Shown: piece by piece, positions 33,001-36,000 of the stretch
Numbering within the stretch: position 1 is the first letter of the stretch
Layout of the letters: every line of letters starts with the position of its first letter
Source of the DNA: Escherichia coli
GTDB lineage: Bacteria; Pseudomonadota; Gammaproteobacteria; Enterobacterales; Enterobacteriaceae
Direction: 5' to 3' (one strand)
Length of the DNA: 64,000 bases
Assembly: GCF_030013205.1 (NCBI RefSeq)
Contig: NZ_CP122648.1
Made by a program: the position numbers

Positions 33001-36000
33001 TCAACGTTTTGCAGCGTTATTACAGGAAGGCGCCATTAAGCAAGATATACCAACGTTGTTTACTGACTCAACCGAAGCTGAGGCGATTAAACTTTTTGCC
33101 AACACTTATCTGGCTATGCGTGTAGCGTATTTCAATGAACTTGATAGTTATGCTGAAAGCCTGGGGCTTAATTCACGCCAGATTATTGAGGGCGTATGCC
33201 TTGATCCGCGTATCGGTAATCACTACAACAACCCGTCATTCGGTTATGGTGGTTATTGTCTGCCGAAAGATACCAAGCAGTTACTGGCAAATTACCAGTC
33301 TGTGCCGAATAACCTGATCTCGGCAATTGTTGACGCCAACCGCACGCGCAAAGATTTTATTGCCGATTCTATCCTTGCACGTAAACCGAAAGTTGTTGGC
33401 GTCTATCGTCTGATTATGAAGAGTGGTTCGGACAATTTCCGTGCTTCCTCGATTCAGGGTATTATGAAGCGAATCAAGGCGAAAGGTGTGCCAGTAATCG
33501 TTTATGAGCCAGCGATGAAAGAGGACGATTTTTTCCGTTCGCGCGTGGTACGTGATCTGGATGCGTTCAAACAAGAAGCTGATGTTATTATTTCTAACCG
33601 TATGTCTGCCGATCTGGCTGATGTAGCAGATAAGGTTTATACGCGCGACTTGTTTGGCAATGATTAATTATTTTGTTTCATACTAAGAAAAGGCCCTAAT
33701 AAATTAGGGCCTTTTCTTATGGTTTTATAAAATCAAACTTTATAGAAGTTACGATACCATTCTACAAAGTTCTTTACCCCCTCTTTAACTGACGTTTCAG
33801 GTTTGAATCCTATTACGTCATACAGTGCTTTTGTATCAGCACTGGTTTCCAGTACATCACCGGGTTGGAGAGGCATCATATTTTTGTTGGCTTCAATACC
33901 CAGAGCCTCTTCTAACGCATTGATATAGTCCATCAACTCCACAGGCGAACTATTACCAATGTTATAGACACGATATGGTGCTGAACTTGTTGCAGGCGAG
34001 CCTGTTTCAACAGCCCACTGTGGATCTTTTTCTGGAATAACATCCTGTAAGCGAATAATAGCTTCGGCAATATCATCAATATAAGTAAAGTCACGCTTCA
34101 TTTTGCCGAAGTTGTAAACATCAATGCTTTTACCTTCCAACATGGCTTTAGTGAATTTAAATAATGCCATATCCGGACGTCCCCATGGACCATAAACCGT
34201 AAAGAAACGCAGCCCTGTGGTCGGTAAGCCATACAAATGAGAATACGTATGGGCCATGAGTTCATTCGCTTTTTTAGTTGCTGCATAAAGCGAAACAGGA
34301 TGATCTACAGAGTCATCTGTAGAGAAAGGCATCTTGCGGTTCATGCCATAAACAGAACTGGAGGAAGCGTAAAGTAGATGCTGAACATTATTATGGCGGC
34401 ATCCTTCCAGTATGTTCAGGAATCCAATCAGGTTTGCATCTGCATATGCATTGGGATTTTCAAGGGAGTAACGTACACCTGCTTGCGCAGCGAGGTTTAT
34501 TACGCGATCGAGCCGCTCGTCTGCAAACAGTGCCGCCATTTTCTCACGATCGGCCAGGTCAATTTTATAAAAACTGAAATTGTCGTGCTTGAGTAAATCA
34601 AGTCGTGCTTGTTTGAGGTTGACATCGTAATAATCATTTAAGTTGTCAATGCCTACAACCTGATGACCAGCTGCAAGAAGCCGTTTACTTACATAGAAAC
34701 CGATAAAGCCAGCAGCTCCCGTAACCAGAAATTTCATTTATAATCCTCGCTCAGGCTAGAATATAGCCAATCTTCATCTGGCATAACTGAAAGTTAAATC
34801 ATACCGTTAGACAAGAAAAAAAGATAATCGGTATCAGTTCTAAACCTGGCTGTTTTTTCTGGTAACGTGCTCATTTTGCAATCAAAGCTGTTCTAAGCTG
34901 ACTATTAGACCACCTTCAAACAACAAGCCGACGTCATTATTTCCAACCGTATGGCAGAAGAGCTTAAGGATGTGGCAGACAAAGTCTACACCCGCGATCT
35001 CTTTGGCAGTGACTAACATCCTGTTATCAGGGCGATTTTCGCCCTGATTCTCTTATGTTCCCTTTGTAATAATTCATTATTTTTATCATTTATCCTATAG
35101 CATTCGTGGCGATTATCGCTAAACTATGGCGACTTAAAATTATTTCGTCCGTTAGGGTAATGATGAGAGTAGAAAATAATAATGTTTCTGGGCAAAACCA
35201 TGACCCGGAACAGATTGATTTGATTGATTTACTGGTGCAGTTGTGGCGCGGCAAGATGACTATCATCATTTCTGTCATTGTTGCTATTGCCCTGGCTATA
35301 GGGTATCTGGCCGTTGCCAAAGAAAAGTGGACTTCCACAGCTATCGTTACTCAACCTGATGTGGGGCAAATCGCTGGTTATACCAACGCGATGAATGTGA
35401 TTTACGGTCCGGCTGTACCGAAAGTCTCCGACATTCAGGCTTCGCTTATCGGACGTTACAGCACTGCATTCTCAGCATTAGCGGAAACGCTGGATAACCA
35501 GGAAGAAGCAGAAAAGCTGACCATTGAGCCTACCGTTAAAAATCAGTCATTACCTTTAGCGGTGTCTTATGTTGGTGAAACACCTGAAGGTGCTCAGAAG
35601 CAGCTGGCGAAGTATATCCAGCAAGTTGACGACCAGGTAAACGTAGAGCTGGAAAAAGACTTGAAAGACAACATCGCGCTGCGTATGAAAAACTTGCAGG
35701 ACTCTTTAAGAACTCAGGAAGTAGTCGCGCAAGAGCAGAAAGATCTGCGTATCCGTCAGATTCAGGAAGCGTTGCAGTATGCGAATCAGGCGCAGGTGAC
35801 AAAACCGCAAATTCAACAGACTGGCGAAGATATCACACAAGATACGTTGTTCCTTTTGGGGAGCGAAGCGCTGGAGTCGATGATTAAGCACGAGGCGACC
35901 CGTCCGTTGGTGTTCTCACCAAACTACTATCAGACACGTCAAAACCTGCTGGATATCGAAAGCTTAAAAGTTGATGATCTTGATATTCATGCTTACCGCT

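Follow-up and report, generated by a model that had tools for sequence, protein, structure and literature searches.

The O-antigen loci of Escherichia coli, Shigella and Salmonella are mosaics, with deeply divergent allele classes, breakpoints inside housekeeping genes and recombination remnants in the neighbourhood formed by galF to gnd, ugd, wzz and his. Intergeneric recombination in gnd is said to have been described by Nelson and Selander in 1994. A review lists nine gene clusters with gene remnants among the 'anomalies' (Liu et al. 2019, PMC7685785). Here we consider a remnant from the same neighbourhood, an orphan 3' end of the gene ugd, encoding uridine diphosphate (UDP)-glucose 6-dehydrogenase, in a stretch of E. 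coli DNA of 64,000 nucleotides (nt) (NCBI RefSeq assembly GCF_030013205.1, contig NZ_CP122648.1). This whole stretch is called the window below, and its positions are used throughout. At the downstream margin of an O139-family O-antigen locus, the remnant is situated between a reverse-oriented epimerase gene, probably gla, and the chain-length regulator gene wzzB. Whichever way the DNA moved, it is almost certainly a recombination scar. Unlike the known remnants of O-antigen loci, it lies beyond the galF-gnd cluster, in the interval from ugd to wzz, it involves ugd itself, and it is common to several unrelated serogroups instead of belonging to one cluster. In the literature that could be searched, no paper describes the ugd remnant or places a gla gene between ugd and wzz.

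A similar outcome is expected from homology-facilitated illegitimate recombination, which combines one homologous anchor with one illegitimate joint and is known from transformation of Acinetobacter and Streptococcus pneumoniae. As in that process, one end of the E. coli arrangement lies in homologous ugd and the other is joined to sequence without relation to it; the resident DNA that lay in between appears to have been lost, and DNA past the illegitimate joint to have been kept. A difference is that the process is here reconstructed from a product that would be thousands to millions of years old.

Genes of the same kind as gla occupy the same site in related genera. The uge/gla(KP) gene of Klebsiella pneumoniae (86% amino acid identity) and the gla genes of Citrobacter, Enterobacter and Kluyvera (84-87%) have the same position and orientation, in that they converge with ugd and immediately precede wzz and hisI. 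The order gnd-ugd-gla-wzz-hisI in Citrobacter, Enterobacter and Kluyvera is complete, and each gene is oriented as in the window. However, these genera have a single unbroken ugd and no second ugd tail between gla and wzz, and the remnant matches their own intact ugd only, whereas the E. coli module is placed inside a broken resident ugd. A second type of E. coli gla, found in 14 genomes including W150 (NZ_CP163042), is also located between ugd and wzz. It forms part of a complete gnd-ugd-gla-wzz block of Enterobacter type, which has approximately 84% identity to E. cloacae DSM 26481, and the gla gene itself is only 75% identical to that of the window. The block has the insertion sequences (IS) IS600 and IS30 between gla and wzz and no ugd remnant. 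The W150-type gla is an independent import.

The ugd remnant

The preliminary description of the window placed an orphan ugd 3' end at 34912-35015. The feature is real and the coordinates were right to within 1-3 bases, the refined limits being 34910-35016. In the alignment the ugd similarity begins exactly at 34910, and formal alignment excludes the absence of similarity between this segment and ugd 3' ends. The distance to wzz, given as about 100 bp, has to be corrected, as the stop codon of the remnant is in fact about 146 bp before the ATG of wzzB (35163).

Translation of 34861-35018 gives a frame shut by TAG at 34906-34908, followed by 34 complete ugd codons counted from 34912 and by the stop codon at 35014-35016. 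Thirty-four of the 388 ugd codons are left, and there is no in-frame ATG, GTG or TTG start in the remnant. In the chromosome of K_EC180, a porcine E. coli, the RefSeq annotation made by the Prokaryotic Genome Annotation Pipeline (PGAP) has a partial pseudogene coding sequence here, called 'hypothetical protein', which lacks the N-terminus and maps to 34912-35016. The remnant is a ugd pseudogene fragment that cannot encode a working enzyme. Alignments of 34700-34910 with intact ugd revealed no convincing degenerate extension of the gene upstream of the remnant.

When the remnant is compared with the whole window by blastn, the only other significant match is the tail of the intact ugd (E = 1.6e-15, 75.5% over 102 nt). 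A repeat search reports a direct repeat pair, 33566-33667 and 34915-35016, with 75% identity at a distance of 1,349 bp. The two tails agree at 78 of 107 nucleotides and 27 of 34 amino acids, and the segment is indeed, as had been proposed, a close but non-identical copy of the intact Ugd C-terminus. The ugd tails of other strains are closer. The remnant is identical at 107/107 positions to the end of the intact ugd in EC_T6, a strain without gla, and agrees at 105/107 positions with 2012C-4502, 103/107 with O157:H7 and 100/107 with K-12. The expectation that it would be nearer to a K-12-like ugd than to the intact copy is thus borne out. The similarity to EC_T6 covers the remnant, the spacer and the start of wzzB (99.7% over 291 nt, 34910-35200). 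Since the remnant agrees with the EC_T6 ugd at all positions and with its neighbour at 78 of 107, it derives from an ordinary ugd allele of E. coli and not from the neighbouring copy.

The intact ugd gene

An abrupt divergence breakpoint had been anticipated within the intact ugd (32501-33667), and it was found. The sliding identity to EC_T6 is 99-100% up to approximately 32800, where it drops to about 75-80%, and 70-85% after that. In a site-by-site comparison with 2012C-4502 there are 4 mismatches in nt 1-336 of the gene and 172 in nt 337-1167, and the latter part is about 79% identical to the EC_T6- and 2012C-4502-type alleles. The allele switch at ugd nt 333-340 (window 32834-32839) is common to the window and to T16R, H2 and STEC379, which are gla carriers with O-antigen clusters other than that of the window.

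The two parts of the gene have different relatives. Nucleotides 1-336 are only 62-69% identical to K-12-type ugd. For nt 337-1167 the identity is 73-83% to all gla-less E. coli alleles that were compared and 72-82% to the genes of Citrobacter, Enterobacter and Kluyvera. The E. coli genome counts in this study refer to a set of 5,426 complete genomes; in this set, nt 337-1167 are matched at an identity of at least 95% in 236 genomes and at 90-95% in a further 40. By these comparisons the intact ugd is a chimera. The whole chimeric protein scores 796 bits against the NCBIfam model NF011631 (UDP-glucose 6-dehydrogenase), whose cut-off is 757.

The E. coli ugd alleles fall into deeply divergent classes, two of them at the 5' end. 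Over nt 1-420, the identity between the K-12/O157 type and the EC_T6/window type is only 54-73%, whereas the remaining 3' two-thirds of K-12-type and EC_T6-type genes are 90-100% identical. The first 300 nt of the window's ugd have any match in only 2,396 genomes. In nt 337-420, EC_T6 forms its own class, with 78% identity to the gla-linked class and 57-67% to K-12. Thus EC_T6 is not a recombinant of gla-linked and K-12-type alleles, and it fits as the parental type.

The gla block and its right joint

The block at 32837-34909 has a length of 2,073 bp and consists of the divergent ugd nt 337-1167, a hairpin and the epimerase gene together with 172 bp of its upstream region. Both its flanks match one extant haplotype, the EC_T6 type, with 99-100% identity on the left and complete identity of the remnant on the right. 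The region upstream of gla (34738-34909) has a GC content of 36% and no similarity to ugd; it has clear motifs in common with Citrobacter-type loci out to at least approximately 34870. The right junction (34909/34910) therefore unites non-homologous sequences, the Citrobacter-type gla upstream region and ugd nt 1061. No transposase open reading frames (ORFs) were found in 32400-35300. There are no terminal inverted repeats, target-site duplications or flanking direct repeats around 32837-34909, the only notable inverted repeat being the terminator hairpin.

The joint exists in three versions. The full 107-nt remnant is found with O139 and O87, and a version with a 17-bp deletion, which leaves 90 nt, in T16R, H2, UMNF18, YY76-1 and PA11. 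In STEC379 the joint is at the same ugd base, and a highly divergent patch of approximately 35 nt lies directly upstream. This patch, corresponding to window positions 34878-34909, differs from the O139 type at about 45% of positions, yet the gla genes are 96-98% identical.

Distribution in E. coli

A query of 421 bp reaching from the gla upstream region over the remnant into the spacer matched 4,531 genomes, mostly from 34910 onward only, that is, over the intact ugd 3' end and the ugd-wzz spacer. The whole query, including the joint between the gla side and the remnant, was matched in only 271 genomes. A gla gene of the window's class, covered over at least 80% of its length, is present in 270 genomes, and about 95% of the genomes do not have gla. 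The left breakpoint query was matched at 90% or higher in 277 genomes, and in 667 others an identity of 80-90% over this query marks the putative parental allele.

The counts of gla and of the joint agree, and no credible gla carrier without the scar was observed among the genomes. The partial gla match in PA11 is an IS-truncated copy with the remnant still present. A match in IH5 that could have been a gla gene at another locus was dropped, as it falls among dozens of fragmentary genes in an apparently scrambled assembly region.

The scar adjoins clusters annotated as the O139, O147 and O87 families and one unnamed cluster. A strain labelled O178:H19 is found among the gla matches, and a strain labelled O169:H41 among the matches of the left breakpoint. 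Within E. coli the gla block varies by up to approximately 3-4%.

Some carriers have additional lesions nearby. The wzzB genes of T16R, UMNF18 and YY76-1 contain an internal stop, and all three strains have the remnant with the 17-bp deletion. ISKpn26 is located upstream of gla in H2, and in PA11 both gla and wzz are truncated by ISSen4 and IS3. The interval between gla and wzz seems to be disrupted often.

Proposed origin of the scar

We propose that a gla block recombined, in a single event, into an EC_T6-type ugd-wzz locus, and put the probability of this history, with this direction, at roughly 0.7. In the ancestor, an EC_T6-type ugd would have been directly followed by wzzB. The incoming foreign piece would have carried the 3' two-thirds of a divergent ugd, the hairpin terminator, the reverse-oriented gla and approximately 170 bp of its upstream region. 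The left crossover may have occurred through ugd-to-ugd similarity at ugd nt 334-339 (window 32834-32839), and the right end would have been joined, without homology, to nt 1061 of the resident ugd. The net result would be the loss of resident ugd nt 337-1060 and the gain of 2,073 bp, with the last 34 resident codons stranded together with the native terminator, the spacer and wzzB. The product would be a working chimeric ugd and a gla gene, supplying UDP-glucuronate (UDP-GlcA) and then UDP-galacturonate (UDP-GalA) for O antigens that contain galacturonic acid (GalA), such as O139. The remnant is presumably inert. It would since have been carried with the module behind several unrelated O-antigen clusters, decaying slowly, with the 17-bp deletion seen in many strains.

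The preliminary description explained the tail by an incoming segment with ugd and the epimerase gene, which replaced most of the resident ugd and left some 34 codons. The recombination scar and the 34-codon tail stand. However, the surviving import begins only at about ugd nt 337, the intact ugd being chimeric, and the part of the resident gene that was replaced would be nt 337-1060 only.

We infer the direction of transfer from parsimony and population frequency. In the opposite case, the divergent ugd and gla would be the older state. An E. coli fragment extending from ugd nt 1061 through the spacer and wzzB to his would have come in, with its left end illegitimately joined to the gla-wzz spacer, and the 5' 336 nt of ugd would have been swapped in a separate tract. 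Such a history agrees with the conserved order gnd-ugd-gla-wzz-hisI in Citrobacter, Enterobacter and Kluyvera, and with the nearly equal distance of the E. coli Gla from all genera (86-89% at the amino acid and 72-78% at the nucleotide level), as in a vertically inherited gene. The listed members of the Gla cluster are all from E. coli, and the variation of the gla block by up to approximately 3-4% suggests long residence. However, two separate tracts would be needed, both from an EC_T6-type haplotype, as the left flank and the remnant each match it. Moreover, an arrangement found in 5% of complete E. coli genomes would have to be ancestral, and no gla carrier without the scar was seen, the gla and joint counts being in agreement. 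The reverse direction is less parsimonious than import of the gla block, and we consider it unlikely. An origin by local duplication of the ugd 3' end, with subsequent divergence of the copies, is suggested by the two direct copies of the tail. It is refuted by the comparison with EC_T6: the copies differ at 29 of 107 positions, whereas intact ugd genes elsewhere in E. coli match the remnant completely. The intact gene also switches allele class internally, and divergence after duplication cannot give such a pattern. We give this explanation practically no weight.

The remaining explanations concern the remnant as a functional element and the block as a mobile element or an artefact. The remnant is present in all of approximately 270 gla genomes, with the native ugd terminator hairpin and spacer preserved, and it might have been kept because it contributes to the promoter or the regulation of wzzB, because the ugd 3' end with its terminator gives rise to a small RNA, or because it encodes a short peptide. 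However, it has no start codon and an in-frame stop is directly upstream; no Rfam family reaches the threshold in 33600-35300; 17 bp have been lost in many lineages; PGAP treats it as a pseudogene fragment; and in gla-less strains the same bases are plain coding sequence. Thus retention for a function is very improbable. Insertion of gla by a mobile element is brought to mind by the IS elements at the same spot in H2 (ISKpn26), PA11 (ISSen4 and IS3) and W150 (IS600 and IS30). Nevertheless, the block is bordered by none of the traces expected of such an event, that is, a transposase ORF, terminal inverted repeats or a target-site duplication around 32837-34909. An assembly artefact, in turn, would have to be repeated in approximately 270 independently finished genomes that have the same structure. 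The chance of either is negligible.

Several observations weigh against the import of a gla block as proposed above. The ugd gene of E. coli is generally a patchwork of deeply divergent classes. In the gla-less strain Z1322HEC0006, ugd contains, at approximately nt 811-945, patches with 97-100% identity to the gla-linked class; thus, pieces of this class have spread by recombination without gla. The left breakpoint could therefore have arisen, or shifted, through later recombination unconnected with the right joint. The donor search is also unfavourable. The best matches of the Gla protein in 100,044 species-representative genomes have 87% amino acid identity (Citrobacter, Enterobacter), and the best match outside E. 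coli in a collection of 5.8 billion proteins has 89%, with no donor in either set. The contigs that encode the 89% proteins have the clean arrangement without the remnant and a nucleotide identity of 76-79%. The nucleotide identity of gla to other genera is 72-78%, Citrobacter being marginally the closest, and in the 90%-identity Gla cluster every named member comes from E. coli. The distance of the gla block from Citrobacter is therefore about that of native E. coli genes, and the block could be an old allele of Escherichia instead of an import. At the illegitimate joint, where any microhomology would have to be sought, the nearest relatives (72-78% nucleotide identity) cannot be aligned over the last approximately 40 nt. 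Finally, the import as proposed does not account for the hyper-divergent patch of approximately 35 nt by the joint in STEC379-type genomes.

The epimerase and the function of the module

The translated epimerase gene contains the NAD-binding motif GAAGFIG (residues 7-13), SSSS (125-128) and YAATK, an instance of YxxxK (151-155), and thus the N-terminal GxxGxxG and the catalytic S...YxxxK of an extended short-chain dehydrogenase/reductase. The product is similar to the structure 5u4q in PDB (E = 4.7e-190) and to the chains of 6zl6 (E = 3.8e-44), deposited as 'Epimerase domain-containing protein'. The latter we take to be the UDP-glucuronate 4-epimerase of Bacillus cereus, although the deposit title does not say so. 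The homologue from K. pneumoniae with 86% identity is presumably the protein, Gla(KP)/Uge, that Frirdich and Whitfield (2005) and Regué et al. (2004) characterised. Pfam domains PF01370 and PF16363 are among the precomputed domains of the representative of the protein's cluster, which is 99% identical to it. In NCBIfam no equivalog model reached its cut-off, and there was no specific model for the epimerase. Some relatives with 87% identity carry the JGI label UDP-glucuronate 4-epimerase. Thus the gene at 33733-34737 probably encodes the UDP-glucuronate 4-epimerase Gla.

The repeat units of O139 (PMC4906484) and O147 (PMC4206707) include D-galacturonic acid. Given GalA in both units and the position of gla next to ugd, Ugd would make UDP-GlcA, and the predicted Gla would turn it into UDP-GalA for O139- and O147-like O antigens. 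In strain LL004 the same layout of ugd, reverse epimerase gene and wzz was described together with an O unit that contains GalA (PMC8657804). In that study the epimerase gene, orf11, was named gne, and gla was said to be elsewhere. The gne label of orf11 is probably a misassignment of a gla gene of this kind.

Gene order and neighbouring features

The features of the region are listed in Table 1. The hairpin between the convergent ugd and gla is flanked by T-runs on both sides and is a probable two-way terminator for the two genes. A promoter scan found no consensus promoter in the interval from gla through the remnant to wzz. An Rfam scan of 33600-35300 gave no family at threshold, and the sub-threshold matches were to the terminator hairpin only.

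Table 1. Features of the ugd-wzzB region and adjacent genes in the window
Feature	Position	Strand	Basis
gnd	30846-32252	+	
Intact ugd, whole	32501-33667	+	
ugd 5' part, nt 1-336, resident allele type	32501-32836	+	about 99% identity to ugd of EC_T6 and 2012C-4502 (both gla-less)
ugd 3' part, nt 337-1167, gla-linked divergent allele type	32837-33667	+	172 mismatches in 831 nt compared with 2012C-4502
Perfect 17+17-nt hairpin between convergent ugd and gla	33684-33719	.	terminator scan; inverted repeat 100% complementary
gla/uge-type NAD-dependent epimerase gene, intact, 334 amino acids	33733-34737	-	ORF and homology
gla upstream (promoter) region, its far end being the non-homologous joint	34738-34909	-	aligns with Citrobacter-type gla upstream region
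ugd 3' remnant, nt 1061-1167, 34 codons and TAA	34910-35016	+	E. coli-type ugd homology; PGAP pseudogene
Native ugd-wzz spacer, including native ugd terminator-like hairpin 35026-35048	35017-35162	+	identity to EC_T6; terminator scan
wzzB, O-antigen chain-length regulator, resident, downstream of the scar	35163-36143	+	ORF; K_EC180 PGAP annotation
hisIE	36239-36850	-	

The K_EC180 chromosome is 99.98% identical to the window over 32.4 kb, the differences being one substitution and five single-base homopolymer indels and nothing else. A family-2 glycosyltransferase gene of the O139 cluster is broken into two ORFs in the window, 29956-30597 and 30546-30749. The run of A at approximately 30573-30580 in this gene is A7 in the window and A8 in K_EC180. 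The split at 29956-30749 may be genuine, as a frameshift or as a phase variant, or it may stem from a sequencing error in the homopolymer. The wzy (24454-25692) and yoeB (43999-44253) genes are whole in the window and frameshifted in K_EC180.

Significance

Mosaic gnd and ugd genes and remnants near O-antigen loci are well documented, and the ugd scar is a new, cleanly resolved example that will not surprise a specialist. It is ordinary for a recombination-prone region, leaves the view of such loci in the field unchanged, and has modest practical value. With two mapped breakpoints and a parental allele, it is a clean example of foreign DNA stitched into the ugd-wzz region. In annotation, the RefSeq 'hypothetical protein' fragment is better named a ugd remnant, and the 'NAD-dependent epimerase' is best read as gla. 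In serotype prediction, a precursor gene outside the galF-gnd cluster has to be taken into account, and the ugd-wzz gap should be checked when the O unit contains galacturonic acid. The breakpoints and the scar provide a marker for the spread of the module among serogroups.

One possibility, to which we give about even odds, is that one ancient capture of a 'UDP-galacturonate supply module', consisting of the chimeric ugd and gla, is ancestral to this locus in all E. coli with this class of gla. The module would since have spread as a movable accessory adjacent to the classical O-antigen cluster but not part of it, pairing with whichever galF-gnd clusters need GalA. If there was such a single founding event, the variants of the remnant (full, with the 17-bp deletion, and with the divergent patch) would be a built-in lineage tag, which could be used to trace the co-transfer of O-antigen clusters and off-cluster precursor genes.

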